NCBI GenBank assembly: GCA_964016885.1
Contig: OZ024740.1
Coordinates: forward strand, 376,216,001 to 376,280,000
Direction of reading: 5' to 3'
DNA length: 64,000 nucleotides
Origin: Eledone cirrhosa
Lineage: Eukaryota
Position numbers and translations under genes: made by a program. Positions 4,074-58,029 of the stretch are shown piece by piece. Every line of letters starts with the position of its first letter. The first letter of the stretch is position 1. The notes beneath the pieces are model-generated. The model worked only from the letters and a program-made list of their open reading frames with translations, had not been told where the DNA came from and searched no databases.

Positions 4074-5189
<1,116 letters not shown>

Positions 5190-6589: not shown

Positions 6590-6657
<68 letters not shown>

Positions 6658-12563: not shown

Positions 12564-12575
12564 AATAACAATGAT

Positions 12576-15500
12576 GCAAGTCACCCAGTCTCGGTTTCTT
12601 CTTGATCCAGGACTGTAGCTCAGTCAAAAAGACGACAAACGGCGACCACACCTATTCACCGTTTAGGCGGAATATCTGGAGATGCCGCAGCTTCAGCACG
12701 TGTTTGCGCATCATTAGCCACGGCATGCCCAGCCGTCCACGTAGAGGGTGCTGGCAGCAGATGGACCGCCTCACCAACGGAACCTGAACAACTTCACAAG
12801 AATTTGAAGAGAACCCGTTCCAAGCCCGACCTTTCAGTGATAGCTTCCTCGCAGCCCATTTCTGGGTGAGACTGGCTACCCTGCCCCTCACCACGTCCCA
12901 ATCCTTATCCACCTGGAGTTCTGGTCCGAACCAAAACCCGAGCAACCTTACTGGTCCGTCCGTCCAGCGCCCAACGACGCTGTTGGACGGCATGGTCTTG
13001 CCCCTGCAGGTGCCGAGTTGCAAGCCCACCACTTTTCCGGGTTAAGTTTTGTTCCCGTCAACCTTTCATATTCCTCCAATAAGTTGCCGACCACCTCGAT
13101 TTCTGAGGTGTCCGACACCATCACGGTGATTCCGGCACAGTCTTTCGCGTCCAGGTTCGAGCGGGATACCCTGCAAGAGCTCCAGCTTCCTTAGTAAAGG
13201 CTCCAGAGTCAATACGTATAGAAGGGAGGAGAGAGGGCACCCTTGACGGAACTATCGGGAGATCTGAAACGGTTCCGAGAGGTGGCCATTAACTTTGACC
13301 ACTGAGCAGATGCTGCAGTGCATTGCAGCGATCCAGCTTCTGAATACGAGCCGAAGCCAGCTGCCTTGTGGGCAGCCTCCAGGTACATATGGTCGACCCT
13401 ATCGAATGCTTTCGATTGATCTAAATTGATCAGAGCCCCACCTAAACCAGGTTTACACCCTCTCTATGATGTATCACACCAGGTGGAGGTTGTCGTGTAT
13501 GGACCTGTTTGGGATTGCGCAAGTTTGCGCGGCCCCAACCAAATCCCCTCGACGACAAGCACCATCCTCTTCACTAACACCTTGGCCAAAATCTCAAATT
13601 CTGTGTTGAGCAGAGTTATGTGCCTGAAGTTGTCTAATGTGTCCCTCTTTTTCTCGTCTTTCCTTATCAGCGTCACTACGCCCCGGCTCACAGAACTGGC
13701 AATACTCCCGTTCTGCTCTCAGTTGCAGTAGAGCGCTTTGAGGAAATAGGAGAACACATCTGGCATTTTTACGTAAAGCTACAAGGGCAGACCATCCAAA
13801 CCGGGTGACTTGCGCCTCATGCAGGTGACAAGGGCATCCTGAATCTCTGCTGAAGTAATCAGCCTTTCGCAGCGCCCAGTATCGGCCGTCTACAGTTGCG
13901 GCAAGCCATAGAGGTAGGGACTAAAGTCTGCCACCGTTTCTGTCGCGCCACATCCCTCGAACAACCGACCAAAATATTGGCGAAAGGTCGCACACGCCCT
14001 CTTGGAATCGCTCAGCTCGTGTCAAAGACCGAATCTTAGTTTTATTACCACGCTGCGCCTCTGCCGCGAACAGCTTTGGTTCCCTCGTTTCTCAGAACAC
14101 GTTTCTCTTAGCTCTGACAATGCAACATTCGTGTTTCGAATTGAAGAGATGATCTAATGCCATTCTCGCCGCTAGCACGTTAGTTGCAATGCCACTACAA
14201 ATATCCTCGTCTAACTTATCTACCAACTCCCCCTCCTTTCTATTTTTCTCTAACGCTAATTCTTTACTAAACTCTATTGACATTACTCTAATCTCTCTTT
14301 CGAGAGCAGCCACCATCTATTGTTGACGAGTCCCCCTGTCAACCTTTTCTTAACTAAATTTTGACCCGGTCCCTCTAAGCCATACGTGCCGGAAATGACA
14401 TGTTCAGCTTCCAGTAACCAGATCCTAACCTACGCGTTTTATATAGGTCGACCATACAGATCACAAACATGTGATCTGAATAGGCGACCTGTTTAAAACG
14501 TGGACACCTTACACTATTTCTGTCAATTTTCCTAATGAATATCCTGTCTATATACGATCTAAATGACTCTATGTGGTTGGTCCAGGTCCACACTGGCGTA
14601 TTAGGGGAATCTAGTCGGTACCTGTCAGACAGTTGGAACTGGCTCATCAGGTATTTGAGGCTTTTGCACCCTGCGCTCCTATCGGATACTCCCACACAGT
14701 CCCAGCGTGCGTCTAAGATTCCATTTCAGTCAACCGCAAACAGTAAAGGGCGAGACGTACCCAGAAAGACTTCCAGGCGTCTAAAGAAGTCCGGTCGTCC
14801 TGCCCCAGTGGGGGCGTGGCCGCCCACCAGTCTAAAGACACCACTTTCGCTATTGTTCACATCCAGGACTACCATCTTACCTCCGGGTCCCGGAAGATCG
14901 ACCTTACCACGAGATCCAGGCCTTTCCTAAACGGCACTGCCACCCCATCTCCCATCCCCGGCTAACCAACAGATACGAAGATCTGATAGTCGTCGAAAAT
15001 GGGGGCTAGTGCGTGCGTGTCGGAAATCCTGGTCTTGCTGACAGCAATTACATCCATTTCTAGAGACATGAGTTCGTTGAGCAGGTGACCTTGCTTCCAG
15101 GATGATCCCAGGCCTCAAATATTTTAAACTACCTATTCTTAATACGGCCATGTTGGCAGTCTTGTGAAGATCGGGTAGTTTGATCTCCATAGTGGTGGGG
15201 TTACTTTTGGGAACCCCTTTAAAAATCTTGAAGTGGGTTTTACGTTCGGGGTTCCCACGTCCCGACGAAAGCTGTCTCGTATCTATTTGTATAAGTCGAG
15301 CAGTATTCGCACAGGAAACAAATCTTCCGGCACGCGAAATGTGCTCTATTTTAAAATTTCCCCCTTTTTTTGTATTTCTTCACTTCGTTCTATGAGGGCC
15401 GTAAGTTCCGTGTTGGCTCTTCTCACGAGCACGAAGTTTTGTATGCTTTGTTGGTATGATTTTATTTGTTTGCATGGCCGTGGTGGTGATGGTTTTGATA

Positions 15501-17306
15501 GTGTTGTTTCCGTTGTGTCTGTGTTTGTTATGAGTGCGGTGTCTGTGCTTTCAGATGTGTGGGTGTGTATTTGTTCAGGCGTCTGTTTAGGTTGTTTGCG
15601 TTTGGGGAATTCTGGTGATGGTGATGGTGGTCTTGGTGTTGGTGCTGTTGTGACGATGTCTGCGTGGGTGGTGTCTATTTTTTATTATGGATGTTTTTGT
15701 ACTTTGTTGAGTTTTTTTCTTTTTGTGTTTCTTTTTTTGTATTTTGGGGGATTTTGTTTTTCTTTCATCTTCACTATTGGTAGATGAGGGGTCTGCGTCT
15801 GTAAGTGTGTCTGTATCTGTGTGTGTGTTTGTGTTTTTATTGATCTGTGTATTTTGGGGGGAGGGGGAATTGATCAACATTCCTCGTTTCCCTCCTGGGT
15901 GGTCAATGTTGGTGGTGGTGTTTCTATTGGTGTTGTTGATTGTGGTTTTGCCGGTGCTAGTGTTGGTTGTGATCCTCGCCCCGGCGTCGGCAGCAGTGGA
16001 GACCTTCGACCCATTGCATCTTTCAGCAGTTGAGGGTGAGTGCAGAAGGCTCGCAAATGGGTTTTTTCCCACAAACGAAACAATGCGGCCTTTTGATCTC
16101 AGTCATAATGTGAATGACCGTCTCATTCTGAAGATGTATGTGGTCCGTGATTGTTTTGACATACCCCGGCATGATCTGGAGAAGTATCTCCAGGTCAACT
16201 CCGGACCAGTCCTCTCTGGCAGTTCTTGTTACTTCTATCGGGACTTTATCCGTCATCTCCACAATCATACATCCCAGAAGTCACGACATGTCAAGTGCTG
16301 TTGGGATTCAGGTAAGGCGGAGACGGGCTGTTCTTTTTCCTTGTTGGTTTTGCAAGGTCTCATAGTATGTTTCATAGCAAGGGCTTCTGACTTAAACAGC
16401 ACCGAAATGGTGCCGTATTGTCTGTCCCTCGCTATGTATTATTCGGTATCATCCCTGATGCACCTCAGCTCGACTTCGACATCTGTTTGTGGAACTAAAT
16501 CTGCCCCTTAGATTTCTGCTGAGATGCATATGTAATGCACAGTTCTGCGCTCCACTGCTTCAATGGCTTCTACCGGGACAGTTAAATTGGCCCAGGTTTT
16601 CTCTTGCATGATGAGCTTCCAGGCCTCGGCCAAGATTTCATTTTTGTTCAAGAGGTCGAAGCTGAAGCATGGCCTCTTTTTGGCTGCTACCGCAACGAAA
16701 GTATTATTCTTGTTGTCGTTGGTGGTGTGGTTGTTGTTGTCGTTGTTCTTCTTGGTGTTGTTGCTGTTAATACTGTTGCTGATGGTTATATATTTGGTGC
16801 CGCCGTTGTTGTTGTTCTCGGTGTAGTTGGTATTGTTGCTGTTGTTTTCATGTTAGTGGTGTTAATATTGTTGTTGCATTTGTTGTCACTTTTTCTGTTG
16901 TCTGTATTTTGGTTGTCGCTGTTACTGTTGAGGTTGGTGTGGTCATTTTTTACAAAATTAATGTTCTCAGTGTTGTTTTCATTGGTGTCTTTCTTCACGT
17001 TGTTTGTGGTGGTGGTTGTTGTATGAATTTCTGTAAATTTCGCCGTGATGCTCCTCTCAACTTTTACGTTGTTGTCACACGAAAGCAGACATATCGCTGG
17101 GGGCGTGGCTCAGCCATGTTCTTTTTATTTTTTCCATAATATGTTAAAATGTAAAAAGTTCAAATATTTGGGCCCAAAAGCCTTTCCCCTCACAGAGCAA
17201 AGTCCAAGTCTTATATCTCTTGCACAACAAAATTAAACAATAAATAAGTTTTGACAGGTAAATAAAGAGACTTATGGGAGCGAGCAGAAAGACGTCCGTT
17301 CAGACC
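12576..17306 (-). mobile_element. Tx1/L1-clade LINE copy 2, 5' end present, 3' end missing, decayed
   Basis: ORF1 with zinc-knuckle remnant (RPHCFVCG..THLRAFC); ORF2 ATG at 15151 with APE and RT fragments. Confidence 0.88.
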
Positions 17307-17324
17307 AATAATAATAATGATAAT

Positions 17325-20300
17325 GATTTAATGTATTAGCCACAAGGGCCGCCGACATGTAGGGGACAATACAAAGACAGGGAGAGTGGGGGTTTACAAT
17401 AAAGTCGAGTAAAAGTGCACAATGGAAAGACTAATTTAACAATGAAGATTTAAAAAATATAAAATAAACTATGCATAAATATAACAAAATAAATTACCCG
17501 ATAGGGGGTGGAAGACCCTGGGGTGACTCGGGTACCCCATCAATCCTGAACCACCCTGCGCTTCTAGGGCACCCAGGGAGAGCACCCCTCTCCTCAAGTT
17601 AGCTAGCCTATAGGCGCATGGTCAGAGTAGGCCCATTGACACGGGCCATTCTCGCCACATTCATCCACCTTTTAGCAAATGTACTGGGGGGCAGCACTTC
17701 TCTGTCCACCCTCACCTTCCTTTCCAGGTGAAACTTGAAGAAGTTGCTGATGGATTGGCCGAAGAGAAAAGGGTCTGTCTTCAGTCCTATTAATCTGGTC
17801 CACCATATAACCTCTTTTGCAACTGCCACGAGACAGAGGAAAGTTTCCTGCTCTTCCTGACCTAAGGAAGGCGGCGGTTCGATCTTCACTATGGACTCGC
17901 CCGATAGCCGGATTCGTTCCACACGCGACCGTAGATGTTCGACATAACTCCACAAGTCAGTAATGCACGGACATTGGACAAATGCGTGCAGAACGGTTTT
18001 GTCGTTCTGTGCGCATCTTGGGCAGGTCCGTCTGACAGCACTTCAGTGCCCCCCGATAGCACTCAACGCATGTCTGCGAATCATTAACAACGGCATGCCC
18101 AGCCCTCCGCGTACAGGGTTCTAACAGCAGATGGAGCGCCTCACCAACGGAACTTGTCTCCTCCACAAGAATTTGAAGAGGAACCGTTCCGATTTGACGA
18201 GGCGCGGACGGGGGAAAGGCACGACGGTCAGGCGGTAGTAGATGACGGACGTGATGTACGCATTCGCCACCTCCGCGCGACCTTTCAGTGATAGCTTCCT
18301 CCAAGCCCATTTTTGAGTGAGACTGGCTACTCTGCTCGTTACCTCGTCCCAATTATTTTCTACCTGGAGGTCTGGTCCGAACCAAACCCCGAGCAACTTT
18401 ATCAGCCTGTCCCTCCAGCGCCCCACGACGCTGTTGGACGGCATGGGCTTGCCTCTCCAGGTTCCGAGCTGCAAGCCCACCGACTTTTCCCGGTTAAGTT
18501 TGGCTCCTGTCAACCTTTCATATTCCTTCAATAATGTGCCGACCACCTCGATTTCTGAGGTGTTCGACACCATCACGGTGATGTCGTCCGCATAAGCCGA
18601 CACCGCCTTTCCATGCCCCGGTTCGATCGGGATGCCCTGAAACATTTCCAGCTTCCGCAGTAAAGGCTCGAGAGTCAATACGTACAGAAGGGAAGAGAGG
18701 GCACCCTTACGGACTGATCGGGAGCGCCGAAATGGTTCCGAGAGGTTGCCATTAACCTTTACCACCGAGCGTGTACCGCTCTGCATTGCACGATCCAGCT
18801 TCTGAAGACAGGGCCGAAGCCAGCTGCTTTGAGGACAAACTCCAGATACCAATGGTCGACCCTATCGAATGCTTTCTATTGATCTAAATTGATCAGTGCC
18901 CCACCGAAGGCAGGTTTACACCCTACTCTCTCTATGATGTATCGCATGAGATGGAGAGTGTCGTGTATGGACCTGGCTGGGATTGCGCAAGTTTGTGCCT
19001 CCCCAACCAAATCCTCGACAACAAGCGCCAATCTCTTTGCAAATACCTTGACCAAAATCTTAAACTCTGTGTTGAGCAGAGTTATGGGCCTGAAGTTTTC
19101 TAATGTATCCCTCTTGTTCTCGTCTTTCCTTATCAGTGTCACCACTCCCCTCCTCACAGAACTGGGAATACTCCCATTCTGCTGCCAGTTGCAGTAGAGT
19201 GCTTCGAGGAGATCGGAGAACAAGTCTGGCATATTTACGTAAAGCTCATAGGTCAGGTGACTTGCGCCTCATGCAGCCGACAAGGGCATCCTGAATTTCA
19301 CTGAAGTAATCGCTCTTTCGCAGCACTCAGCATCGAACGTCGAGATGCGCGGCAAGCCTTCAAGTAGGGACTGAAATCCGCTACTCTCTCTGACTTGCCA
19401 CTCTCCACGAACAACCGAGCAAAGTGCTGGCGAAAGGCCTCACACATCCGCTTGTAATCGCTTATTTCGTGTCCGTCTCGGTCCGCCAAAGACTGAATTG
19501 TGGTTTTATTACCACGCTGCGCCTCCACCACGCGGGCCCATCGAACAACTTTGGTTCCCTCGTTTCTCAGCGCACAACATTAGCTCTGACAATGCAACCT
19601 TCGTGTTTCGCATTGAAGAAATGGTATAATGCCATTCTCGCCGCTAGCACGTCAGTTGCAATGCCACTACAAATACCCTCATCTAACTTATCTATGAGCT
19701 CACCCTTCTTTCTATTTTTCTCTAACACTACTTCTTTGCTGAACTCTACCGAAGTTACTCTAATCTCTCTTTTGAGAGCCTCCCACCATATGATCCCCCT
19801 GTCAACTTTTGCTTAACTAAATTGTTGACTCGGTCTCTGTAAGCATTACGTGGCCGAAATGACATGCTCAGCTTCCAGTAACCCTGTCCCAACCTACGCG
19901 TTTTATCTAGGTCGACCATACATTTCACAAATTTGTGATCTGAATAGGCGACCGTTTTAAAAAGTGAGCAACCTACACTATTTCTATCTATTTTCCTAAT
20001 GAAGATCCCGTCTATATACGATCTAGATGACCCCATTCGGTTGGTCCATGTCCATACTGGCACATTGGGGAAATCTAGTCGATACCTGTCAGACAGTTGG
20101 AACTGGCTGAGTAGGTGCTTGAGGCTTTTGCACCCCCGCTCCTATCAGCTACTCCCACACAATCCCAGCGTGCGTCTAAGATGCCATTCCAGTCCCCCGC
20201 TAACAGTAAAGGGCGAGACATACACAGAAAGTTCCAGGCGCCTAAAGAAGTCCGGTCGTCCGGCTCCTGTAGGGGCGTAGACGGCCACCAATATAAAGGC

Positions 20301-22147
20301 ACCACCTTCGCTACTGCTCACATCCAAGACCACCAACCTACCGTCCGGGTCCCGGAAGATCGATCTTACCTCGAGATCCAGTCCTTTCCTAAACAGCACT
20401 GCCACCCCACCTCCCATTCCCGGTCTGCTAACAGATGGGAAGATTGATAGTCGTCGAATATGGGGGCTAGTGCGCGCGTCCCACATCCATTTCCAGCGAT
20501 CTGAGGTCGTTGAGCAGGCGACCCTGCTTCCAGGGTGACTCCAGGCCGCGAACATTTAAACTTCCTACTCTTAATATGGACATGCTGGCAAGCTAAAAGA
20601 GAGCGGGAAGGTTCACTTACCTCTCGGGGTCTTGTGAAGATCGGGTGGTTCGACCTCCATGGTTGGTGGGGTTTCTTTTGGGTACCCCTTTAAAAGTCTC
20701 GGTGTGGGTTTCACATTCGGGGTTCCCACGTCTTGAGGAAAGCCCTCCCGAATTTCTTTGAAGGAATCGAGTGACATTCGCACCAGAAGCAAAATGTGCT
20801 CATTCCAAAAACCTCCCCTTCTGTTTGAATGTCCTCGCTTCGTGCTAAGAGGGCTATCAGTTTATCGTTGGCCCTTCTGACAAGCACGAAGTTTTCGACA
20901 TTTTGTTGGTGTGGTTTTATTTGTTTTCGTTTTGGTGGCGTTGTTTCGTGTAAGTCTGTATTTGTTGTAGGTGTGGTGTCTGCAATTTCAGGTATTTGTG
21001 TGTTTATTTGCACTTGTGTTTGTTTAGGTTGTTTGCGTTTCGGAGATTGTGGGGGTGGTGTCAATGTTGTTGTTGGTGCTGATGTTATTGGGGAAGTGTT
21101 TGCGTTAGTGGTGTCTGTAATTTTTGTTGTGTATGATTTTGTTTTGATGGGGCTTTTTTTGTGTGAGTTTTCCGCTGGAAGACGAAGGGTCTGTGGCTGT
21201 GAGTGTCTCTGTGTCAGTGTGTGCGTTTACTGTTTTGTCTAATTGGGGGTGGTAGGGGGAGTGGGAGATCTTTCCTGGATTTCCCCTTGGATTGGTTTCG
21301 TTGTTGGTAGTGGTCCGGCTGTTTTTGATGTTGGTGTCCGTGTCTTTGTTGGTGTTGTTTTTTGTGGTGGTGGTGGGGCAACTTTCCGTGCTGACACTGG
21401 CGTTGGCCACAAAGGAAGTTTGCGACCCCCTGCACTTTTGCGCTGAGGGCAGGAGGCCGGCAGATGCGTTGCTTCCCCGCAGACGAAGCAGTGCGGCCTT
21501 CTTCCCTCAGTGATTAGTTGGATTGTTGTCCCGTCCTACAGGCGGGCAAAATCCGGGATGTTGTTCATGTCCTCCGGTTTCATTTGGAGAAAAATCTCCA
21601 AATCCATTCCGGACCAGTCTTCTCTCTCTGTCCTTTTGATATCAAGGAGGGTAGTGTCTCTTCCCTCCTTGATTACGCATCCCAGCAGCCACCATATGTT
21701 CATTCCTGATGGGATGCTGTGAATGCGGACCATTACTGTCCTTTTACCCATGTAGGACGGGTGCATGATAATGCGTTCCAATCTGCAGGGGGTCACCGAG
21801 TGCTTAATAGCAAGTGCCTAGGTTTTAAACAGTACCGAGATGGTACCGAACTGTTTGGCTCTTGCGTTATACTCTATGTCACTTCCGATGCACTCTAACG
21901 CAGCCTTGACCTCTGCTTGGCTGGCAAGTTCAACTTTTCGTCTCTGCCCCGAAATGCATCGAAAGTACACCGTCCTCCACTGCATGGCCGCTATTGCCCC
22001 GTCCAGGATGGTCAGGTGTGCCCAGGACTTCTCCCTTTTAATTAGCCTCCACTACTAGAAAATACAAAAAATGATACATTAAAACAGATTTAAGTTACGA
22101 ACCTTTTCCCCCGCAGACTTGTACTGTCTTCACACATGTGCGTCCAC
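17325..22147 (-). mobile_element. Tx1/L1-clade LINE copy 3, with an internal deletion in the 5' part of ORF1
   Basis: ORF2 fragments from 20583 to 17608 (FRPITLLNTEFKIL, SAYADD); related to copy 2; AAT tracts on both sides. Confidence 0.9.

Positions 22148-22203
<56 letters not shown>
22148..22203 (+). repeat. (AAT)n tract between Tx1 copies 3 and 4
   Basis: Pure AAT repeat. Confidence 0.97.
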
Positions 22204-22204
<1 letters not shown>

Positions 22205-22446
22205 TTTTCTTTATTAACCACAAGGGTTCACATAAACTAGACATTAAGGACAGTACAGGACAATACAGGACGGTAGAAATGGGCATTTCTACGTGTAAAA
22301 AAACAGAGGTTGAAATAAAATAACAAAGAAAAATTCCCCAATAGGGGGGAGACTTCCAAGGGACATTTGTGGAGAAAGCCCATTAAAATACCACAGTGGC
22401 CCTGACCACCAGGGCAAGTGCCCTCTCCCAGTTTTCCACCTTTAAT

Positions 22447-25400
22447 TTACAGACACATACTCAGAAAAGGCCCATTAATTCGGGCCATACTTGCTTCTCT
22501 CACCCATCTTTCAACAAAATGCTGGGAAGAGAGCACTTCCCTCTCTACCCTGATTTTCCTTTTCAAATGAAATTTGAAAAAGTTAATCAGGGCATCACCG
22601 AAGAGGTAAGTGCTCGTCTTCAGCCCTTTCAAACGTGTCCACCATACTATCTCTTTCGCCATGGCCACCAGACAGATAAAAACTGCCTGCCCTTCCAGGC
22701 TAAAGGAAGAGGGCGGGGCAATCCTCACGATGGACTCAGCTGATAGCTGGAACCGTCCTACACGTGACAGCAGGTGTTCGACATAAACCCACAAGTCAGC
22801 AATGCTCGGACACTGGACGAGTGCGTGCAGGACGGTTTCGTCGCCCTGCGCGCATCTCGGACATGCCCGGCTGACGGCACCTCCATGCCTGTAGAGTTTA
22901 TCCCGAACTGGCAAAGCTCCTCGGTAGCACTGCCAGGCCAGGGATTTCTGGAAGTTGTCCATAGGCCCCGGCCCGAAAGTCCTTCCGAAGAGATTGGCTA
23001 GTTGATTTTCGTCGACGCCTAGAGTTTCTCCAAGTACGTCGTCGCTCTTCCCCTCCACTAATCCCCTATAGAACGCCAAGGTGGAGTTTCCACCGATCAC
23101 ATTGCCCGATTGGCCGAGGGCTGTGAGCGCCTGAAGACATTCCAGTCTCCAAGCGCTCCCTCTTGGTCTTCGCTTGACCCAGGACTGCAGCTCCGTCAAG
23201 GAGACGAGCTGGGGAAAAACGTGTCTTGCAAACGGCGACCACACCTGATCACCGTCGAGGAAGAGGTGGAGATGTCGTAGCCTGAGCGCGTGTCTGCGCA
23301 TCATCAGCCACGGCATGCCCAGCCCTCCACGTAGCGGGTGTTGACAGCAGATGGACCGCCTGACCATCGGAGCGCGTCCCTTCCACAAGAAGCGAAAGAG
23401 CAAACGCTCCAGCGCAGTCAGGCGGGGCTTAGGACAAGGTACGACGGTCAGGCGGTAGTAGATGACGGATGCGATGTACGCATTCGCCACCTCCGCTCGA
23501 CCTTTCAGGGATAGCTTCCTCTCGGCCCATTTCTGGGTGAGAGAAGCCACCCTGCTCGTCACCTCGTCCCGGTTTTTGTCCGTCTGGAGGTCTGGACCGA
23601 ACCAGACCCCTAGCAATTTAATCGGTCCGTCCGTCCAGCGCCCAACGACGCTGTTGGACGGCATGGACCTGCCTCTCCAGGTGCCGAGCTGCAGGCCCAC
23701 TGACTTTTCCTGGTTGATCATTGCTCCTGTCACCGCTTCGTATTCTCTTAGTGTAGTGCCGATCGTCTCGATGTGTTTGGCGTTCGACACCACTACGGTG
23801 ACATCGTCGGCATATGCTGACACGGATCTTCCGCATCCTAGTTCGCGCGGGACCCCCCTCAACGTCTCCAGTTTGTGCAGTAATGGCTCGAGAGTCAATA
23901 CGTACAATAGGGACGAGAGGGGACATCCTTGGCGGACCGAGCGCATGATGTTGAACGGTTCCGAAAGGTGACCGTTCACTCTCACTACAGAGCAGATGTC
24001 GCTGGTGCATGGCAGCGATCCAGCCTCTGAAGACGGGCCCAAAGCCAGCCGCCGTCAGGACTGCCGCTAGGTAACGATGGTCGACCCTATCGAAGGCTTT
24101 CGACTGATCTAAATTGATCAAAGACCCACCCGTGCCAGGTTCCCTAGCTACCCTCTCTACGATGTATCGCATGAGGTGGAGGTTGTCGTGGATGGATCTG
24201 TCGGGAATGGCGCATGTCTGTGCCTCTCCCACCAGACCACCAACGACAAGCGCCAACCTCTTTGCTAGCACCTTGGCCAAAATCTTGAACTCTGTGTTTA
24301 GCAGAGTTATGGGCCTAACATTATCTATGTTATCCCCCTTGTTCGGATCCTTTCTCAGCAGCGCCACCGCTCCTCGGCTCACAGAGCTGGGAATTCTCCC
24401 GTTCTGTTGCCAGTTGCAGTAGACGTCCGCCAAGAGGCCTCAGAACAAGTTCATAGGGCAAACCATCCAAACCAGGCGATTTACCCCTTGTGCAACTAGT
24501 CATTGCATCCCGTACTTCAGTGGTTGTTATCGGCTTTTCGCAACACTCCGCCTCAGTGGCCGAAAGCCGCGGCAGTCCGTCGAGGTAGACACTAAAGTCC
24601 ATCCCTCGATCCGGCCCGCCACTGCCCCCGAACAGTTGAGCGAAGTGTCGCTGAAAAGCTTCACACATTTGCCCGGGATCGAGTAGCATGCGCCCGTCGT
24701 GGTCCACCAAAGACCGGATCGTGGCTTTGTTGCCACGACGCGCCTCCGCCACTCGGGCCCATTGAACGGCTTTCGTCCCCTCGTGTCTGAGAGCACGCAC
24801 CCTAGCTCTGACAACGCAGCCTTCGTGCTTTGCATTGAAGAATTGGTCAAGGGCCAATTTCGCCGCAAGTACGTCGGTCGCGATGCCTTTGCTAAGCGCC
24901 TCATCTAATTTTCTAACTAATTCTCCCTCTGCTCTATTTTTCTCTATTGCTAAAGTCTTACTAAACCTAATGGACTCTATTCTAATTGCTCTTTTCAGAG
25001 CAAACCACCACTTGTTGTTGACGATGGCACCCGTCAACGCCCGCTTAACTAGTTCGCTAATCCGGTCTCTGTAGGCCTTGCGCGCTGGTAAGGACGCGTT
25101 TAGCTTCCAGTAGCCGGGTCCTCGTCTATGAAGCCTATCTAAGTCAAGCACACAGATCACGATTTTGTGGTCCGTGTAGCTGACTATCTTGAATTGTGGA
25201 CAGCCTATGCTAGACCTATCTATTTCCCTACAAAGTACTCTATCTAGATATGATCTGGATGACCCTATGCGATTTGTTCAAGTCCACATTGGTACATTCG
25301 GGAAATCCATTCGGTACCTGTCAGACAGTTCAAAACGTCTGAGCAGGTTGGTGAGACTCTTGCACCCTCCTTCCCTATCCACTAATCTCACACAATCCCA

Positions 25401-25847
25401 GCGTGCATCTAAGATCCCGTTCCAGTCGCCCACTAACACTAAAGAGCGGGACGTTCCAAGAAAGGTCTCCAGACGCCGGAAGAAATCAGGCCGCCCTGTT
25501 CCTGTCGGGGCATAGACGGCCACTAACCTGAAAGCTTGCCCGTCTCCGCTGGTCACGTCCGGCACCACCAATTTACCTTCTGGGTCCAGGAAGATGGCCC
25601 GTATGGCAAGATCCAAACCTCTCCGAAAAAGCACAGCAACTCCTCCCCCCGATCCCGGACGGCTGGGAGATGCGTACACATCGTAGCCGCCGAAGATCGG
25701 TGCGAAAGCCTGTGCTTCGGAGATTCTGGTCTCGCTGATGGCCACTACATCTATGTTTAGTGACCTGAGGTCGTTGAGCAGGTGGCCCTGCTTCCATGAC
25801 GACCCCAAGCCACGCGCATTTATGCTGCCTATTCTGAGTGAGGTCAT
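22447..25847 (-). pseudogene. ORF2 (APE endonuclease, RT, C-terminal zinc finger) of Tx1 copy 4
   Basis: SINARGL, ISETRI, LVGDWN, SPGLDGLPYE, LDQSKAFDRVDH, SVRQGCPLS, YADD, CPRC..ETVLHALVQC. One TGG to TGA nonsense change at 25278 and frameshifts near 24450 and 24005. Confidence 0.93.
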
Positions 25848-25881
25848 GTTGAAAAGGAATGGAAAAGATGGGAAAGACCAC

Positions 25882-27837
25882 TTACCTTACTTCTCGTAGG
25901 GGAGGGACGGCTTTTCCATCCTTTTCACTGCTTGTGGCCTCCTCAGGAAGGATGTCCTTATAAATCCTCCTGGAGAGTGCTTGTCGGAAGTCTCCGATGT
26001 CTTTGGGGAATTTTTGTTTTAGTGTCATGTACGTTTTCTGTGTGATGCGAGTGATTTGTATGTGTGGAGGTGGTGTGAATTTTGGGGTTGTTGTGTAGTC
26101 TTTTTCTGTGATGCTGGTGTTGTGTTGGATGTAGTGTAATAATTGCTTGTTGTTCAAATTTAATGCTGTGTAGTGTGTATCGTTTTGGTTGTTTTGTTTT
26201 GTTTGCGTTTGTTGTGGGTTTGTTTCTGTTTCGCATTTTGGTGACTTTTGTGGTGTAGGTGATGGTGGTGTTGGAGTTAATGATGGTGATGGTGTTGGTG
26301 TTTGGGTTGATGGGGTTGGTGATGCTGGTGTGGATGGTGGCATATCTGTCCTAACTTTTTTGTTTCTTAGTTTATTTGTTTCCCTCTGTGTTTTGTTTTT
26401 GGAGGGAGAAGGAAGAGAATTTTTTCTTTTTTGGTTTCTTTTTTTTTTCCGGATATCGTTTCCCACTCCTCGTCGTCACAATCTGTCTCCAGTTGTGATA
26501 GGCCGGGGAGTGGAAATTCCTCCACAGCCGTTTGTTTTGGTTGTGGTGTGGTGGATGGTGTAGGCGCTGGTGCTAGTTCTGAAGCGTTGGGTGGTGGTGG
26601 TGTTGGTTTTCCTGGTGGTGGTAGTGGTGTTGGTTTTGCTACTGTTGCTGGGGTTGTTGCTGTTATAGTTGCTTCTGTTGTTGCTGCTACAGTTGTTGCT
26701 GCCATCTCTGCTACTGGTGGTGTTGATGGTTGTGTCACTGGGGTGGGTAGGAGAGGTGGCCTCAACCTTTTAGCCTGAGGGCAGAAAGCCCTTAGGTGGG
26801 TTCCTTCACCACAAACGACACACCTAGGTCTTCTGCCCTCGACAATTACCGTGAGGTGGCTGCCGTCAGTGAGATCTCCTCAATGCTTTTTTGGTCCGCT
26901 TGGATCAGGAGCTCCATCCCAGATCCAGACCAGTTTTCTTGCTTTTCTTTTGCTACTGCTATTATTTTCGTGTTGGCTTCGATGCCGGCGAGGACAGCCG
27001 CTATTAGCCAGGGAATTTCGATGGCCGGTGGAACGTGGGTTACCCTGATCTTTACGAGTCTCTGGCCACAATAGCTTGGGACGAGTGTGAGGTCGTCACT
27101 TTTTAATGGGGCCATGGAGTGTTCTCTAGCCTCCTCTGGTGTTTCAAAGAACACATCCACGGTTCCATACTTTTGCCCACGTCTGATGTTGGTTTTTCTT
27201 GCCCACACATGTCCCAAAGCTTTTTGGATTTGGGACTCGGATGCCCGTTCCACTCGGCGCGATTTTACATTTATTGTTCTATACGACACGGTGCACAGGC
27301 GCCGATGCTCCATTTTATTAGGTGTGGGGGGGGGGGGGTGAGGCTGACCCTGTACCCATCTTTCTTTACCATTTGTTTGGCATTTTCTAAATCTTCTTGA
27401 GTTACCGTGAACGCTTCGAATTGTTTTGCTACGATGGCGAAACTGAGGGTCGGTTTTATAATGTCATTGTTGTTGTTGTTGCTATCGTTAATATTAATTT
27501 TATTTTCAGTTGTGGTGGTGGTGACGTCAGTCGTCTTTGGTGCGGAAGAGTCCATTTTGCTTGATTTCATTTCGACATCACGAGTTAATTTTTTTTTTTC
27601 TTCTTTTGTTTCTGTTGTCGCGGTGGTGGTGGTGGTGGTGGTGGAGACTTTAACACCTGCAGTCATTGGTAATGGCGGGAAATGAATGTCTGCCTGAGAC
27701 AAATTTAAAATATTGCTACTGCTTATATTTTTTTTTGTGTTGGCAAACGTAGTAACATTTACAATGGTGGTGTCGGTGTGAGGTGTTATTTTGTGAGGAA
27801 GGCTTTCAGCTGCTTCGTGCAGAGGTGAAGTAGCCAT
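25882..27837 (-). pseudogene. ORF1 (gag-like, CCHC zinc knuckle, Pro/Thr-rich) of Tx1 copy 4
   Basis: ATG at 27837; VEGRRPRCVVCGEGTHLRAFC (CX2CX4HX4C) at about 26785-26842; frameshifts include one at the G-run near 27330. Confidence 0.85.
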
Positions 27838-28045
27838 TTTTTTTCAAAGAAATTTTTTGATAATAATAAAAGTTAAGATTTTGGGCACAAGGCCCCAATC
27901 TTTTTGGGTGTCCTTTTCGGAAAACAATCTATGTGTGCTTATAAACAGTTAACAATAAAATTTTCCATAAATGGCAATTTTTAACAAACGGAAATAACAA
28001 ACTTTTGCGGAGCTCACGATGATACGATTTACTACGTAGGTCGCC

Positions 28046-28095
<50 letters not shown>
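28046..28095 (+). repeat. (AAT)n tract between the Tx1 copy 4 head and the Dong head
   Basis: Pure AAT repeat. Confidence 0.97.
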
Positions 28096-31000
28096 GGGAG
28101 AACGACCCCTCTAGTCTTGGTTGACACTCATTCTAGAAGTGGTAACACGAAATGATTACCCCTTGGCGGATAAGGATAAAACGGGACAAAATAAAGTAAA
28201 TGTCTAATGATAAAATCTCATACCGGATCGGCCGTCACCCGGGTAAAAAAGGGCCGCGTCCCTCAGAGAGGAACCAGACTGGGGTCGAAAAATCAGCTAA
28301 TGGTTCAAACCTGCCCATCACTTCGGAGCTGGAGACCTCGCATAACCGGAATACTCCTACTGTTGGCCCTCCATGCTCACCACCAAGAAATCCAAAGAAA
28401 AAGAGAGAAAAATGGTCAAGGGAAGATAATAAAGAAGTCCTTGAGGCTTTCTACACTGCCATGTACTACCCATCAAATACATCGAATACAGAACAGACAT
28501 ATATCCACTGGAAAAAGAAACATCCCGAAAACAGCGGCTATATTGACAGCAACAAACTAGCCAATATACGAAGAAATATTGTAAGAAAAAAGTTACTAAC
28601 TGATATAGAAATTGATCAGATCAAGCTATTAGCACAAAGTCAGCGAAGGGAAAATGAAACATGTGTCAGTGAAAACGAGGTAAACTGTAATACTTCGAAT
28701 CCCAGGGTTGGGGCGGAATCACTGGCAACAGAAAAAATTAAAGAAAGGATCGAAAAAGTGGAGGGAGTGCATGCTCAGGATGAAACTCCAAATGAAAATA
28801 ATGAGATCGTAAATGATAAAGAAATGAATGAGAATGAACTTGCCAACTTGAAGGATGAAATTATGATCGAATGGATGAAAATGAAAGAATCTGACATGGG
28901 GAAACGAGACACCCTCCCTAAGATCCAGAACTCCAAACAGAACCAAAAGATAATACACAAGACTAACATAATTCTCAAAAACATTATCATCACAAACAAA
29001 CTAAACATTACTGATTTAAATCATCTCTATTATGCATCGGCTAAAGTCACCACTCACTTATGTGGAGTGAAGATGAACAAACAAAGTAATTCCCACAAGA
29101 AATCTACTTGGCAAGAGAACATCAATCGCCAAATAAACCTTCTCCGATCTGACATAGAAATTTTAACAAACTATAAAGTGGATGAACATGTTAAACAAAC
29201 TAAACTTAGAAAATTGAAAAAAAAGTACAGTATAAAATCAACATGTGACATAGACATGCTGATAGAAATAATCAAGCAAAAAGTGTCGGCCAAAGCTGCT
29301 CGTATAAGGCGCTTTGAAAAACGATCTAGATTCTATAAGGACAATGATATGTTCAAAAACAACCAAAGAAACTTCTACAGAAAAAGTGGTAAGTCAACAA
29401 TAACTGCTAAATCAATACCACCCAAGGAGGAAGTGCAAGAATTCTGGGAAAAGATCTGGACCGAAGAAAAAGTTCATAACATACATGCCCCATGGATAGA
29501 CAGACAAATGAAAGATACAGTCACCTTGAGGAACAAACATGGGAAAATATAACAGTTGAACAGTTGCGCTTGGCTCTAAGAAAAACCAGCAAATGGAAAT
29601 CCCCAGGAAAAGACAAAATACAAAACTTTTGGATAAATGCCTTCACAGAGTCTCATGAGCTGTTAGCCCAACTTTACAATGAAATAGTTGAGGAGCCAGA
29701 AAAGATACCTTCATGGCTAGTTAACGGCATTATATTCCTGCTTCCGAAGAATGATGAGACAAACAATCCCAAAAATACAGACCGATAACTTGCTTGACCA
29801 CAATGTATAAAATTTTAACATCAGTCCTAACTGAATACACATATGACCACCTGATAACAAATGACCTATTTCCCATTGAGCAGAAAGGGTGTAAACGAGG
29901 CTCATATGGCTGTAAGGATCAGCTTCTGGTTAACAAAATGATACTGGAAGACTGTCATAATAGACACAAAAATCTATCGATTGCTTGGATAGATTATAAA
30001 AAAGCATTTGATAGTTTGCCACACAGTTGGATTGAAAAATGTTTAGAGATTTTCAAAGTATCCCCCGTTGTCAGGAGGTTTTTGTCATTCAGTATGAAGA
30101 CATGGAAAACGACACTCCTTTTGAATAGTGAAACAAAATCACTGGAAGCTGGAGAAGTTAATATTAAGTGTGGAATTTTTCAGGGTGACTCTTTATCACC
30201 GCTTTTATTCTGCATCGCACTTATACCATTAAGTAAAATGCTCAATGAAACAAAACATGGATATAAAGTCTATGACAAAACCATTAATCACCTGTTCTAC
30301 ATGGATGACCTGAAACTATTTGCAAAAAATGATGAACAATTGCAAAGGCTATTATCCACTGTGAAGCAGTTCAGTGATGACATTAAAATGGAGTTTGGAC
30401 TAGATAAATGCGCCAAAGCAACGTTCACCAGAGGAAAGCTGCTGAAGAGTTCAGACATTAATCTTGATCGGGGGAACGTGATAAGAGAACTTGATCAAGA
30501 AAAAACTTACAAATATCTAGGTGTTTGTGAAGGAGACGGAATCAAGCACTCGACAATGAGGGAAAGGATAAGGAAGGAATGTTACCGCAGAGTGAGGGCA
30601 ATCTTAAAAACGGAATTGAATGCAAGGAATAGGATCGATGCCATAAACACGCTTGCCATACCAGTAGTAACCTACAGTTACAATGTCATCAACTGGTCAA
30701 GCACAGAGATCCGTAGGCTCGATACAAAAATTCGAAAATTCTTAACCATGCACAGAATGCATCACCCTAAAGCAGATATAGATAGAATATATCTCCCTAG
30801 GAAAGAAAGAGGACGTGGGTTAATCCAGTTAGACATTGCGTTGAAAACTGCAACAATTGGATTATCTACATATCTAAGGGAATCACATGATTGGATGATC
30901 AAACTCGTTTTGAAACACGAAAGCATCAAAAGATCATATTCCATTACAAAAGATGCACAAAGATACAGTAATGGACTACAAATTTCAGAAGTCCCATTTA

Positions 31001-31992
31001 CTGCTGAAATGGAAAACACAGAAAAAGCAAAGCAGGTAAAAGTAACTGCAAAGAAAGAACTGCTACAGAAACGGGCTAAGAAATGGCAAGAAAAGCCTCT
31101 GTATGGAAAATACCCAGAGCGAGCTAACAATCCTGATGTTGACAAAACTTTAACCCATCAGTGGTTGGCATCCTCTGGACTGAAATCGGAGACTGAAGGA
31201 CTGATTATATCGGCACAAGATCAGTGTCTGCCAACAAAAAATTACCAAGCCAACATAATAAAAAATGGGTGCAGCCCATTATGCCGTGTATGCAAAAAAC
31301 AACCAGAGACCATTGACCATATAATTTCAATGTGCAGTCCTATAGCTCCAACCGAATACCTAAACAGGCATGACAGAGCTGCACAATACATACATTGGAT
31401 AATGTGTAAGCATTTTGACCTGCCCCATCAAAAGAATTGGTGGGAGCATCAACCACCTCCCATACTTGAAAAAGATCACATCTCAATCTTGTGGAACTTT
31501 AGCATCCAAACAGACCGAAAAATAGATGCAAACAGACCTGATATAATATTGAAAGACTTTCAAAAGAGGGTATGGCTGCTAATTGATATGTCTGTTCCAA
31601 TAGACAAGAATGTATCTATAAAAACATTTGAAAAATTGAGCAAGTATAAGGACCTGGAGATAGAAATTGGAAAAATGTGGAAATTGAGAACTAAAACAAT
31701 ACCAGTGGTTGTAGGCGCTCTGGGAATGATACCTAAGGGGTCTAATGATTACATATCGCAAATCCCAGGAAAACCGCGTATAGGAGAAATACAAAAGATA
31801 GTACTAATGGGAACTGCCCATATACTAAGGAAGATTCTGTCAATATAAGTACATCACAAGTCTAAACACTAAAGATGCATGTGTGAATATGTATGTTCTT
31901 TCTTGAACATGGCGGACCTTGTTGTCTCTTGAGGTCACTGGTTGTGACTTGGTGATAACTCGTATGAACATAAAGCAAGATAAATGCAACTG
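28096..31992 (+). mobile_element. R4/Dong-clade non-LTR retrotransposon 1, full length, in (TAA)n
   Basis: Single long RT-RLE ORF; (TAA)n at both ends (28046-28095 and 31993-32011). Confidence 0.92.
28200..31848 (+). pseudogene. RT plus restriction-like endonuclease of Dong 1 (two frameshifts, near 29510 and 29775)
   Basis: WKSPGKD, EQKGC, WIDYKKAFDS, GIFQGDSLSP, YMDD, CRVC..ETIDHIISMC, RHD, RPDI..D, EKLSKY. Confidence 0.93.
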
Positions 31993-32011
31993 TAATAATA
32001 ATAATAATAAT

Positions 32012-34599
32012 GTTTTCTTTATTAACCACACGGGTTTACATAAAGTAGACATTAAGGACAGTACAGGACAATACAGGACGGTACAAATGGGCATTTCTGC
32101 GTGTAAAAAAAACAGAGGATGAAATAAAATAACAAAGAAAAATTCCCCAATAGAGGGGAGACTTCCGAGGGACATTTGTGGAGAAAGCCCATTAAAAGAC
32201 CACAGTGACCCTGACCACCAGGGCAAGTGTCCTCTCCCAGTTTCCCACCCTTAATTTACAGACACATACTCAGAGAAGGCCCATTCATTCGGGCCATACT
32301 TGCTTCCCTCACCCATCTTTCAACAAAATGCTGCTACCCTGATTTTTCTTTTCAAATGAAATTCGAAAAAGTTTATCAGGGCATCACCGAAGAGGTAAGT
32401 GCTCGTCTTCAGCCCTTTCAAACGTGTCCACCATACTATCTCTTTCGCCATGGCCACCAGACAGATAAAAACTGCCTGCCCTTCCCGGCTAAAGGAAGAG
32501 GGCGGGGCAATCCTCACGATGGACTCAGCTGATAGCTGGATCCGTCCTACACGTGACAGCAGGTGTTCGACATAAACCCACAAGTCAGCAATGCTCGGAC
32601 ACTGGACGAGTGCGTGCAGGACGGTTTCGTCGCCCTGCGCGCATCTCGGACATGCCCGGCTGGAGGCACCTCCATGCCTGTAGAGTTTATCCCAAACTGG
32701 CAAGGCTCCTCGGTAGCACTGCCAGGCCAGGGATTTCTGGAAGTTGTCCATAGGCCCCGGCCCGAAAGTTCTTCCGAAGAGATTGGCTAGTTGATTTTCG
32801 TCGACGCCTAGAGTTTCCCCAAGTACGTCGTCGCTCTTCCCCTCCACTAATCCTCTATAGAACGCCGAGGTGGAGTTTCCACCGATCACATTGCCCGATT
32901 GGTCGAGGGCTGTGAGCGCCTGAAGACATTCCAGTCTCCAAGCGCCCCCTCTCGGTCTTCGCTTGCCCAGGACTGCAGCCCGTCAAGGAAACGAGCTGGG
33001 GAAAGACGTGTCTAGCAAACGGCGACTACACCTGATCACCGTCGAGGAAGAGGTAGAGACGTCGTAGCCTGAGCGCGTGTCTGCGCATCATCAGCCACGG
33101 CATGCCAAGCCCTCCACGTAGCGGGTGTTGACAAGGCGGGGCTTAGGACAAGGTACGACGGTCAGGCGGTAGCAGATGACAGACGCAAAGTACGCGTTAG
33201 CCACATCCGCTCGACCTTTCAGGGATAGCTTACTCTCCGCCCATTTCTGGGTGAGAGAAGCCACCCTGCTCGTTACCTCGTCCCTGTTTTTGTCCGTCTG
33301 GACATCCGGACCGAACCAGACCCCTAGCAATTTAACCGGTCCGTCCGTCCAGCGTCCGACGACGCTGTTGGACGCCATGGACCTGCCTCTCCAGGTGTCG
33401 AGCTGCAGGCCCACTGACTTTTCCTGGTTGATCATTGCTCCTGTCACCTCTTCGTATTCTCTTAGTGTAGTGCAGATCGGCTCAATGTGTTTGGCGTTCG
33501 AGACGACTACGGTGACATCGTCCGCATATGCTGACACGGATCTTCCGCATCCTAGTTCGCGCGGGAGGCCGCTCAACGTCTCCAGTTTGTGCAGTAATGG
33601 CTCGAGAGTCAATACGTACAAGAGGGACGAGAGGGGACATCCTTGGCGGACCGAGCGCATGATGTTGAACGGTTCCGAAAGGTGACCGTTCACTCTCACC
33701 ACAGAGCAGATGTCGCTGTGCATGGCAGCGATGCAGCCTCTGGAGATGGGCCCAAATCCAGCCGCCCTCAGGACTGCCGCTAGGTAACGATGGTCGGCCC
33801 TATCGAAAGCTTTCGACTGATCTAAATTGATCAAGGACCCACCCGTGCCAGGTTCCCTAGCTACCCTTTCTACGATGTATCGCATGAGGTGGAGGTTGTC
33901 GTGGATGGATCTGTCGGGAATGACGCACGTCTGCGCCTCTCCCACCAGACCACCAACGACAAGCCCCAACCTCTTTGCTAGCACCTTGGCCAAAATCTTG
34001 AGCTCTGTGTTTAGCAGAGTTATGGGCCTAAAATTATTTATGTTATCCCCCTTGTTCGGAACCTTTCTCAGCAGCGCCACCGCTCCTCGGATCACAGAGC
34101 TAGGAATTCTCCCGTTCTGTTGCCAGTTGCAGTAGACGTCCGCCAAGAGGCCTCCGAACAAGTCTGGCATCTGTACGTAAAGTTCATAGGGCAGACCTTC
34201 CAAACCAGGCGATTTACCCCTTGTGCAGCTAGTCATTGCCTCCCGTACTTCAGCGGCTGTTATCGGCTTTTCGCAACACTCCTCCTCAGTGGCCGAGAGC
34301 CGCGGCAGTCCGTTGAGGTAGACACTAAAGTCCAACCCTCGATCCGGCCCACCGCTGCCTCCGAACAGTTGAGCGAAGTGTCGCTGAAAAGCTTCACACA
34401 TTTGCCCGAGATCGAGTAGCATGCGCCCGTCGTGGTCCACCAAAGACCGGATCGTGGCTTTGTTGCCACGACGCGCCTCCGCCACTCGAGCCCATTGAAC
34501 GGCTTTCGTCCCCTCGTGTCTGAGAGCACGCACCCTAGCTCTGACAACGCAGCCTTCGTGCTTTGCATTGAAGAATTGGTCAAGGGCCAATTTCGCCCC
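32012..34599 (-). mobile_element. Tx1/L1-clade LINE copy 5, 5'-truncated, same subfamily as copy 4
   Basis: Closely similar to 22204-24864, with small internal deletions near 32335 and 33133; (AAT)n on both sides. Confidence 0.95.
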
Positions 34600-34665
<66 letters not shown>

Positions 34666-34686
34666 AAGAAGAAGAAGAAGAAGAAA
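34600..34686 (+). repeat. Compound (AAT)n(GAA)n microsatellite
   Basis: Direct reading. Confidence 0.95.
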
Positions 34687-35519
34687 AAAAAAGAATAGGT
34701 AAGAAAACGCACACGGTGGAGATATATCGTTATGGAATCGCTCCCTAAGTTTTTGATTTTTTCTTATTTAAAACAACTGTGATAGAATAATTCTTATTAC
34801 AGATGAAATATAAGATTACAGTTTTTTACCCTCAGCAGGCGACAACACATCACATTACGGCATAGGACACCAATATTTAATATTTAATTTTGGATCAGAA
34901 ATGTTATAGTCGAAAAAGAGAAAAATGACTAAGTGAACAGACAGGCAAATAATTTCACCACCAACACCACCACCACCACCATTACCACTACCACGCCAAA
35001 AACTCTAGTGAAGTTACCTCAACTTCTATTTCTACTTCAACTTCAACATCATCACTACAGTACTACGATCACATCACCACCACCACTGCCTCATTATCGC
35101 TACCGCCGCTATTCTCTCCCACTACGTCCTGCTAAGTACTACTAGCACATCACCACCACCACCACTGCCTCATTATGGCTACCACCGCTTTTCTCTCCCA
35201 CTACCTCCTGCTAAGACAGGCATCATAGTATTCCCACTAAATAAGGGAGGCATCAAAAGATATAAATAGACTGATTTATTGACCCGGTCAAAAAATCAAA
35301 AAAATCAAAAATAAAAATAAAAACAGCACAGCAGCAACAAAAAACGTAAAGAAAAGAAAAAAAAAGAAAAGATAAACAAACAGACAGACAAGCAAACAAA
35401 CTAAGTCAGACATTCAAACATTACATTACAATGAAACTTATGCTTATTTTTTGGGGTTTTTACCTATTTGTTTGTTTGTTTATCTTAGCTGTTGTTTCTT
35501 TTTACTTTTTCCTGTCTAC

Positions 35520-39120: not shown

Positions 39121-39123
39121 AAC

Positions 39124-39193
<70 letters not shown>

Positions 39194-39207
39194 GTAATAA
39201 TGATGAT

Positions 39208-39593
39208 CCCGTGGTTTTGGACAAGGAAGAAAGATCGTGCCTGATTGTGGATGTGGCCTGCCCATTTTACACGAGAAGGTAAGAAAAGGAGATGGAGAAA
39301 ATTAGCGGATACCAGGACTTAAAGTGGGATTAAAAATGATTTGGAACTGCCATGAAATCAAAGTCGTCCCGATCGTCATAGACGCACTAGGTACTATCTC
39401 AAAGAGTTTCCAAGGATGGTTAAAGAAGATTAGTCCAGCCCCGCGTTTTTGGAACACTTGAAAAGGCATGCTTGATGGGAACAGCAAGAACCCTCCGATA
39501 GGTCCTGGTTATCTGAGGCTGAAGGTAGTGGCTTGATATTCATTTCAACAAACTTTCCAGTTAAATATCATCAATGACTGAGACTCAATGAAC
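39208..39593 (+). mobile_element. 5'-truncated copy of Dong 2
   Basis: Repeats 38738-39120 with substitutions; followed by an AAT tract at 39594-39613. Confidence 0.9.
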
Positions 39594-58026: not shown

Positions 58027-58029
58027 TAT

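Follow-up and report, generated by a model that had tools for sequence, protein, structure and literature searches.

The LINE stack and its (AAT)n junctions

The window discussed here is the whole stretch of 64,000 nucleotides taken from contig OZ024740.1 of Eledone cirrhosa (assembly GCA_964016885.1, positions 376,216,001 to 376,280,000 of the forward strand). It contains a 27-kb block (7562-34599) in which five copies of a long interspersed nuclear element (LINE) of the L1/Tx1 type lie head-to-tail and in one polarity, every junction being an (AAT)n run; to the left this stack ends at a (TA)n run, to the right at (AAT)n(AAG)n. The copies, c1 to c5, were found by BLAST self-comparison of the window and are listed in Table 1 together with the remaining features. 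An earlier note, made from the letters of this DNA, had proposed an (ATT)n-specific LINE family. Targeting of AAT is strongly supported at this locus by five separate insertions, two 5' runs that no copy has as its tail, a pair of sequences resembling a target-site duplication (TSD) and a Dong-like LINE that occupies the same runs. The earlier note had missed that the copies form a stack, that a Dong-like LINE shares it, that the conserved 3' motif has the form of a hairpin and that a short interspersed nuclear element (SINE) bears this hairpin too.

Table 1. Features of the window, in order of position (ORF, open reading frame; UTR, untranslated region; RT, reverse transcriptase; APE, apurinic/apyrimidinic-type endonuclease; RRM, RNA recognition motif)
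Feature	Positions	Strand	Remarks
tRNA-type SINE	2000-2185	-	A/B-box-like motifs by eye; ends in the lineage hairpin (2013-2023)
Interrupted AAT run	7545-7561	+	Copy 1 tail/TSD; abuts (TA)n; left stack edge
Copy 1 (c1)	7562-12563	-	5'-truncated within ORF1; most decayed, along with copy 2
Interrupted AAT run, 12 nt	12564-12575	+	Forms, with 7545-7556 (11/12 identical), the TSD-like pair that flanks copy 1
Copy 2 (c2)	12576-17306	-	5' end complete; ~0.9 kb lost at the 3' end
Degenerate (AAT)n, 12 nt perfect	17307-17327	+	Copy 3 tail and copy 2 5' flank
Copy 3 (c3)	17328-22147	-	3' end intact; internal deletions; ORF1 N-terminus missing
(AAT)n, 56 nt perfect	22148-22203	+	Copy 4 tail and copy 3 5' flank
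Copy 4 (c4)	22204-28045	-	Full-length L1/Tx1-group LINE, six lesions
Copy 4 3' hairpin	22210-22228	-	4-bp stem, 5-nt loop, then AATAAA
Copy 4 ORF2	22447-25847	-	APE endonuclease, RT (YADD ~23814), C-terminal CX2CX8HX4C
Copy 4 ORF1	25882-27837	-	Low-complexity N-terminus, tandem RRM-like region, CX2CX4HX4C knuckle, T/P-rich C-terminus
Copy 4 5' UTR	27838-28045	-	208 nt; homologous to copy 2 5' UTR
(AAT)n, 50 nt perfect	28046-28095	+	Between the 5' ends of copy 4 and D1; tail of neither
D1, R4/Dong-like LINE	28096-31992	+	RT, CCHC, restriction-like endonuclease motif; single ORF
(AAT)n, 19 nt	31993-32011	+	Tail-to-tail, common to D1 and copy 5
Copy 5 (c5)	32012-34599	-	5'-truncated, lacks the endonuclease; shares 94% identity with copy 4
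(AAT)n 38 nt + (AAG)n 50 nt	34600-34685	+	Copy 5 5' flank, right stack edge; AAG/TTC part unoccupied
D2, second decayed R4/Dong-like family	35500-39123	+	(AAT)n at 39124-39201 comes next; 5' boundary approximate
D3, 5'-truncated D2 copy	39202-39593	+	Lies within the AAT run, with degenerate (AAT)n after it

As had been claimed earlier, AAT stands on both sides of full-length and truncated copies alike: a perfect run in ATT phase lies directly 5' of four of the five copies (12 nt at c2, 56 nt at c3, 50 nt at c4 and 38 nt at c5), and the 5' flank of c1 holds a 12-nt interrupted run only. At this one locus an ATT run thus flanks 4/5 copies, or 5/5 counting the interrupted run; PMC4494074 places the criterion for a target preference in the Tx1 clade at >20% of flanks. 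Outside the junctions, ATT-phase runs of at least 9 nt are met at 19 of 127,302 positions (1.5e-4). Among the perfect AAT-type runs of the window, 11 reach 10 nt or more, and eight of these are LINE junctions (six of the family, two of Dong-like elements only); one of the other three lies inside the c4 5' UTR and two are free. All five perfect AAT runs of at least 18 nt are LINE junctions. The runs at 28046-28095 and 34600-34637 are the tail of no copy, and the TSD-like pair that frames c1 retains the same interruption. No family copy sits in the AAG/TTC runs at 34636-34685 and 40209-40278, nor in the many long (AT)n runs and the TG runs of the window, and targeting of TTC in the manner of the Koshi family is ruled out by the empty AAG run. 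As a further observation, ATT is followed by GG at four of the five Tx1-like 5' junctions (12563, 17306, 28045 and 34599, minus strand), truncated copies included, and D1 (28096, plus strand) likewise opens with GGG right after its AAT run.

The copies represent at least three subfamilies, in line with the earlier note, since pairwise identity is 94.3% for c4/c5, 77.8% for c2/c3 and 67.8-73.1% for the remaining pairs; in the RT tree c1 joins c4/c5, and c2 joins c3. The lesion loads per 100 codons amount to 2.21, 2.23, 1.23, 0.27 and 0.52 for c1 to c5. Because the copies are 6-32% divergent and carry unequal lesion loads, they are separate insertion events, and a single multimeric insertion as the origin of the stack is ruled out by this divergence. 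Each later copy had to find an AAT run of <60 nt. The lesion loads suggest that the stack grew at its 5' side, but this order is not significant.

Anatomy and kinship of the family

Copy 4 had been described as near-intact, and it is indeed full-length, but its ORF2 bears one stop (25278, in the endonuclease) and two frameshifts (near 24434 and 23995), and its ORF1 is split over four frames by three changes (~27330, ~26880 and ~26430), all of which coincide with or adjoin homopolymer runs. None of the five copies is intact. The 5' UTRs of c4 and c2 reach a global alignment score of 26 versus -49+/-12 for shuffles (0/1000 shuffles reach it), and since they are homologous and start at the same point after the run, both are true 5' ends. 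The 5' end of c3 shows no significant homology to the c2 and c4 UTRs (70 and 205 of 1000 shuffles) and, thus, c3 is not called full-length. The 5' UTR of c4 also contains a module resembling a 3' end, with a hairpin of the 3' type (27884-27894), an A-run and a 10-nt ATT run (27860-27869), and c2 has a similar stretch. This module may derive from a 3' end that was captured when the elements lived in tandem arrays.

The ORF1 knuckle of c4 is also found in c3. An alignment-based ORF1 model (predicted local distance difference test, pLDDT, 75) has tandem-RRM proteins as top matches (prob 0.97-0.98), which are weak (E 0.01, TM 0.37); at E<=0.001 the PDB yielded nothing for this model, and a single-sequence fold of an ORF1 piece reached a pLDDT of 35 only. 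As a lead for ORF1, RRM_1 is present in 18% of one ESM Atlas cluster. Transposase_22, the mark of type II ORF1, had no Pfam match in the ORF1 pieces of the window or in intact ORF1s of the sister lineage described below. An RRM plus a CCHC knuckle characterizes type I ORF1 of the Tx1 clade in the consulted part of PMC5203782, and the family agrees with this layout through the knuckle in c4/c3, zf-CCHC in the sister ORF1 and the RRM-like model; the layout is not unique to Tx1. The ORF2 of c4 matches Exo_endo_phos, RVT_1 and zf-RVT in Pfam, with all APE catalytic motifs in place, and the ORF2 length is ~1130-1155 aa. The proposal that ORF2 could be rebuilt from c4 and c5 fails, since c5 begins near ORF2 codon 329, past the endonuclease, and therefore covers both frameshifts of c4 and misses its stop.

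The closest named relatives are proteins of Argonauta hians (69%) and of the cuttlefish Acanthosepion pharaonis (44%), which points to an octopod host; a further protein reaches 74%. Among solved structures, where only L1 and R2 are represented, the RT matches L1 ORF2p with 127 bits versus 85 bits for R2, and vertebrate L1 is the best match for both RT and endonuclease. A search for a Tx1 reference protein found only turtle proteins, of which P0419 was used as the Tx1L proxy (80 bits on a Tx1L-loop chimera, the construct described in PMC1950540, versus 72 on the wild-type L1 endonuclease), and a frog protein with 555 bits to L1 was the L1 proxy. The rows of four trees (130, 44, 28 and 36) were selected among 384 candidates, partly with a redundancy filter and partly by hand. 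In three of them a starred clade unites the window copies with the Argonauta proteins, and its sister clade contains the cuttlefish protein; likewise in three the L1 proxy, the Tx1L proxy and the cephalopod clade form a polytomy. The mixture-model tree places the cephalopod clade outside the L1-like and Tx1L-like rows (unstarred, 88/86), and none of the four groups the family with the Tx1L-like proxy to the exclusion of L1. The read-through of c4 scores 315 bits with the Tx1L-like turtle protein versus 240 bits with the L1-like frog protein. Judged by domain layout and RT, the family belongs to the L1/Tx1 group. It appears to work like a Tx1, but the assignment to the Tx1 clade in the earlier note stands only at the level of the L1/Tx1 group, where we keep it. 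The ESM Atlas returned generic RT clusters only, and a plasmid collection gave no match.

Microsatellite targets are already described for Kibi, (TC)n, Koshi, (TTC)n, and crocodilian Tx1 families, (TTCC/TTTC)n, in the consulted part of PMC4494074; like the window family, these are APE-type L1/Tx1-group LINEs located within microsatellites, with repeat on both sides. However, Kibi and Koshi have TC/TTC-type targets, whereas the window family has AAT/ATT in an invertebrate host. The Tx1L element of Xenopus is another sequence-specific APE LINE (PMC1950540 and PMC4494074, as far as consulted), but its target is a DNA transposon and its endonuclease hairpin loop is 2 residues longer than that of L1, whereas the loop of the window family has L1 length. 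Vertebrate L1 would resemble the family in the logic of its tail primer and in TSD length; unlike L1, with poly(A) and Transposase_22, the family has an RRM and CCHC ORF1 and a conserved 3' hairpin without poly(A). In Octopus vulgaris, 80 L1-Tx1 families, 13 of them recently active, are reported together with active Dong-R4 elements (PMC13282606, consulted in part). These families share the annotation class and probably the host group of the window family, which is probably among the 80 consensus families; the consulted part of that source gives no target preference, tail or SINE link for them.

A scan of genome contigs yielded 45 further loci, 40 of which come from one assembly titled as a bacterial metagenome-assembled genome (MAG). 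Loci L001-L038, L041 and L044 (contigs CAXXMW01...) are animal LINE arrays on contigs up to 94 kb and raise a contamination flag; L039, L040, L042, L043 and L045 add more eukaryotic LINE sequence in MAG records, with an A-run near the contig end in L039 and L040. A bacterial reading of these loci is ruled out by their content, LINE arrays of eukaryotic type flanked by (AT)n-rich sequence. Scans with Rfam and for tRNA genes were negative for the window and for 13 and 23 of the 45 outside loci, which speaks against an RNA-gene target.

The sister lineage consists of L001-L038, L041, L044 and L045, neighbours in the tree of the Acanthosepion protein P0167, and this sample represents one host and is biased to arrays. 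Its units of 6.4-6.85 kb have mostly intact ORFs, are 93-100% identical and lie head-to-tail with array-specific spacers of 15-20 nt that behave like target duplications. The sister lineage resembles the window family in RT (45% identity), a homologous ORF1, the same 3' hairpin loop with AATAAA and head-to-tail stacking, but differs in a long 3' UTR with a second hairpin, near-identical intact units, a mostly 11-residue endonuclease loop and no microsatellite. Neither an AAT/ATT run nor poly(A) follows any of 51 distinct sister 3' ends (50 from one assembly), so AAT use is not lineage-wide and looks derived, whereas stacking looks like a lineage trait. Between conserved T and S anchors, the endonuclease loop has 9 residues, similar in c1-c4 and Argonauta, and 11-13 residues in 29 of the 32 readable sister proteins (35 examined). 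As far as these sequences go, AAT use coincides with a shorter endonuclease loop, a hairpin loop that, according to the consulted part of PMC1950540, influences the nicking specificity of L1 and does not alone set it.

The 3' hairpin and the co-occupants of the runs

The earlier note had also reported a conserved 3' motif followed by (ATT)n instead of poly(A). The motif is present in all four copies that keep a 3' end (c2 has lost its own), (ATT)n comes next and poly(A) is absent from these 4/4 ends; the strict pattern holds in 3/4, c5 departing by one T>G. The motif appears to be a hairpin: in an alignment of 16 rows (four window ends, 10 sister ends, the SINE end and the copy in the c4 5' UTR), three of the four pairs change on both sides, and 0/500 shuffles reach the score. 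Single 3' ends fold no better than shuffles (z -2.0 to +0.5). After the hairpin comes AATAAA in c4, c5 and the sisters and AATACA in c1 and c3, and this AATAMA element is probably a polyadenylation signal.

The same hairpin ends the tRNA-type SINE, located 5 kb from the stack. Its 19-bp TSD (1981-1999 and 2186-2204) starts exactly with (ATT)3, in the polarity of the LINE tails; if the LINE made it, the first nick would have fallen where an AAT run has its 3' end. A motif taken from the sister loci has two matches in the window against 0.06 expected, one within the c4 5' UTR and one where the SINE ends on its 3' side. The anchored similarity between SINE and LINE is reached by 14 of 20,000 background windows for c1 and by ~2% for c3 and c4, with an anchor set by eye, but local unanchored similarity is not significant (603/5000), which counts against the link. 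Because the hits were known when a first motif pattern and a hairpin scan (9 versus 2.3 expected) were designed, neither serves as a test. With one SINE copy as its basis, the element at 2000-2185 is a candidate passenger of the window LINE family.

The D1 element, placed between c4 and c5 in the orientation opposite to c1-c5, is near-intact, with two frame changes near 29.5-29.8 kb. Its best solved-structure matches are R2 proteins, and its motifs are visible in translation; from the motif style and the target, we take it to be R4 rather than R2. D2 shares 30-50% protein identity with D1. AAT lies on both sides of D1 and D3 and 3' of D2, consistent with a (TAA)n target, and no AAT run was seen at the 5' boundary of D2, itself approximate. 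Such a target is documented for Dong in most insects, molluscs and cnidarians (PMC7998251, consulted in part). The Dong/R4 clade thus has the microsatellite (TAA)n in common with the window family, and Dong-like elements use the same runs here. However, they possess a single ORF and a restriction-like nuclease and lie in the opposite orientation, whereas the window family is of the two-ORF APE type, and the RT identity between the two is only ~22%. The orientation of D1 suggests that the opposite strand is nicked first.

Several other sequences occur in the window. A GC-rich decayed RT element at 53217-56074 (plus strand), with RVT_1 as its only Pfam match, ends near the (AT)n run at 56147 and is presumably CRE-like, judging by its motifs. 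Three RT/GIY-YIG-type fragments at 353-1390 (minus), 45781-47343 (plus) and 56449-56970 (plus), which have no Pfam match, we assume from their motifs to be Penelope-like, and the last of them comes after (AT)n and a 15-nt TAA run. A heavily decayed RT fragment of another LINE, ~30% identical to the window family, lies at 43448-44287 (plus). Unclassified repeats comprise those tied to (AT)n runs (4073-4907 and 58020-58780), a 566-bp local duplication (96%; 5188-6597) and a 218-bp inverted pair (96%; 2824-3549).

Probable target choice, its alternatives and its significance

We consider it likely that the octopod branch of a cephalopod-containing L1/Tx1-group lineage inserts by target-primed reverse transcription into (AAT)n. 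From the anatomy, polarity and duplications seen in the window, we infer RNA ends, nick sites and hairpin binding. Transcription would run on for a few ATT repeats, and the 3' hairpin would be the feature by which ORF2p binds its RNA, a stringent form of recognition. The APE domain would nick the AAT-reading strand, whose freed 3' end could pair with the (AUU)n RNA and prime synthesis, a parallel to the pairing of a T-tract with poly(A) in L1. Through a second nick, at a distance of 12-19 nt, the run would be duplicated and a fresh target thus left 5' of the new copy; slippage would lengthen the regenerated run, and later families would insert there to build the stack. Dong-like elements would reach the same runs independently, by means of a restriction-like nuclease and on the opposite strand. 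Runs of 3-4 units probably suffice, which makes this a strong preference with no exclusive specificity for long microsatellites.

Several observations weigh against this interpretation. Three of the five 5' runs double as the tail of a neighbour and only 2/5 are independent, so the earlier count overstates independence; the earlier note had described copies behaving alike, and all of them do lie at AAT, but in one stack rather than at independent loci, and c2 lacks its 3' end. The locus is a single one and may be a local hotspot. Moreover, two 15-nt AAT runs (2278 and 56261) are unoccupied, and a 130-bp internal fragment of the family (61288-61419, plus strand, 75% like c2/c3), whose ends are lost, has no AAT run near it. 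The gradient from old to young copies along the stack is not significant (Spearman -0.8, 16/120 permutations). The hairpin is not significant on the four window ends alone (167/500 shuffles), and kinship among rows inflates the 16-row test. With regard to the endonuclease, three of the 32 readable sister proteins also have a 9-residue loop, and grafting between L1 and Tx1L did not transfer specificity with the loop alone, according to the consulted part of PMC1950540. Finally, since sister arrays stack without a microsatellite, stacking needs no AAT recognition.

This last point leads to the main rival, self-stacking, in which the lineage re-inserts beside its own copies or its arrays recombine, and AAT is a spacer inherited from the founder. 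The sister arrays show what this could look like: they extend up to tens of kb with array-specific spacers of 15-20 nt, and the spacer is found again behind the final unit of L007, ahead of the initial one of L019 and ahead of truncated units of L028 and L018. The window stack, moreover, shows their head-to-tail polarity. We nevertheless hold this explanation to be unlikely. Sister units are 93-100% identical whereas window copies are 68-94% identical, so recombinational amplification does not fit the window; c5 adjoins the 3' end of an unrelated element and no sister copy; Dong-like elements picked the same AAT runs; and the SINE at 2000-2185 combines the lineage hairpin with its own (ATT)3 at 5 kb from the stack.

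It is improbable, in our judgement, that (ATT)n is a tail only and that the copies inserted opportunistically at A/T-rich nicks, without any endonuclease preference, the cluster having survived in a gene-poor hotspot. The 9-residue, L1-length loop of the family would suit such a process, as would the consulted parts of PMC1950540, which names RNA-target pairing as a possible selector, and of PMC13282606, which reports hotspots of transposable elements in octopus genomes. However, many long (AT)n, AAG/TTC and TG runs are empty and all junctions are AAT in one polarity; furthermore, pairing-driven choice is itself an AAT preference, so that this alternative differs mainly in the selecting step. 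An assembly artefact, with unrelated LINE copies joined via AAT runs, is highly improbable. The junctions are simple repeats and the frame changes in the c4 ORF1 lie at homopolymers, a typical read error, but false overlaps would need more than the 12 or fewer perfect bases of two junction runs, the TSD-like pair extends across c1, and chimeric joins would still require ATT at the 5' end of each copy.

Beyond targeted insertion into (AAT)n, a wider scenario is conceivable, which we regard as rather doubtful. The cephalopod lineage would be an L1-group lineage apart from Tx1 proper, hairpin-guided and array-building, and its octopod branch would have switched to AAT with a loop 2 residues shorter, would meet the target of Dong from the opposite strand and would mobilise an ATT-tailed, tRNA-type octopus SINE.

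An AAT/ATT-specific Tx1 family was not found in searches that covered the literature and not Repbase or Dfam, although figure 3 of PMC4494074, with the targets of further Tx1 families, and its supplements, outside the consulted part, could contain one; AAT is, therefore, apparently an undescribed repeat target for this kind of LINE. Since microsatellite targeting by Tx1-type LINEs is already known, the increment is the new repeat unit. At this locus, two unrelated nucleases, APE and restriction-like, would converge on one microsatellite in opposite polarity. The close pair of lineages, one bound to AAT and the other not, which differ in a target-linked loop, makes the origin of APE specificity testable by swaps. 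An octopus SINE may also have its autonomous partner in this family, and SINEs constitute ~11.6% of the DNA in such genomes (PMC13282606, consulted in part). Moreover, insertion into (AAT)n would explain how AAT microsatellites grow into multi-kilobase LINE stacks, which bears on the assembly of cephalopod genomes and on marker design.

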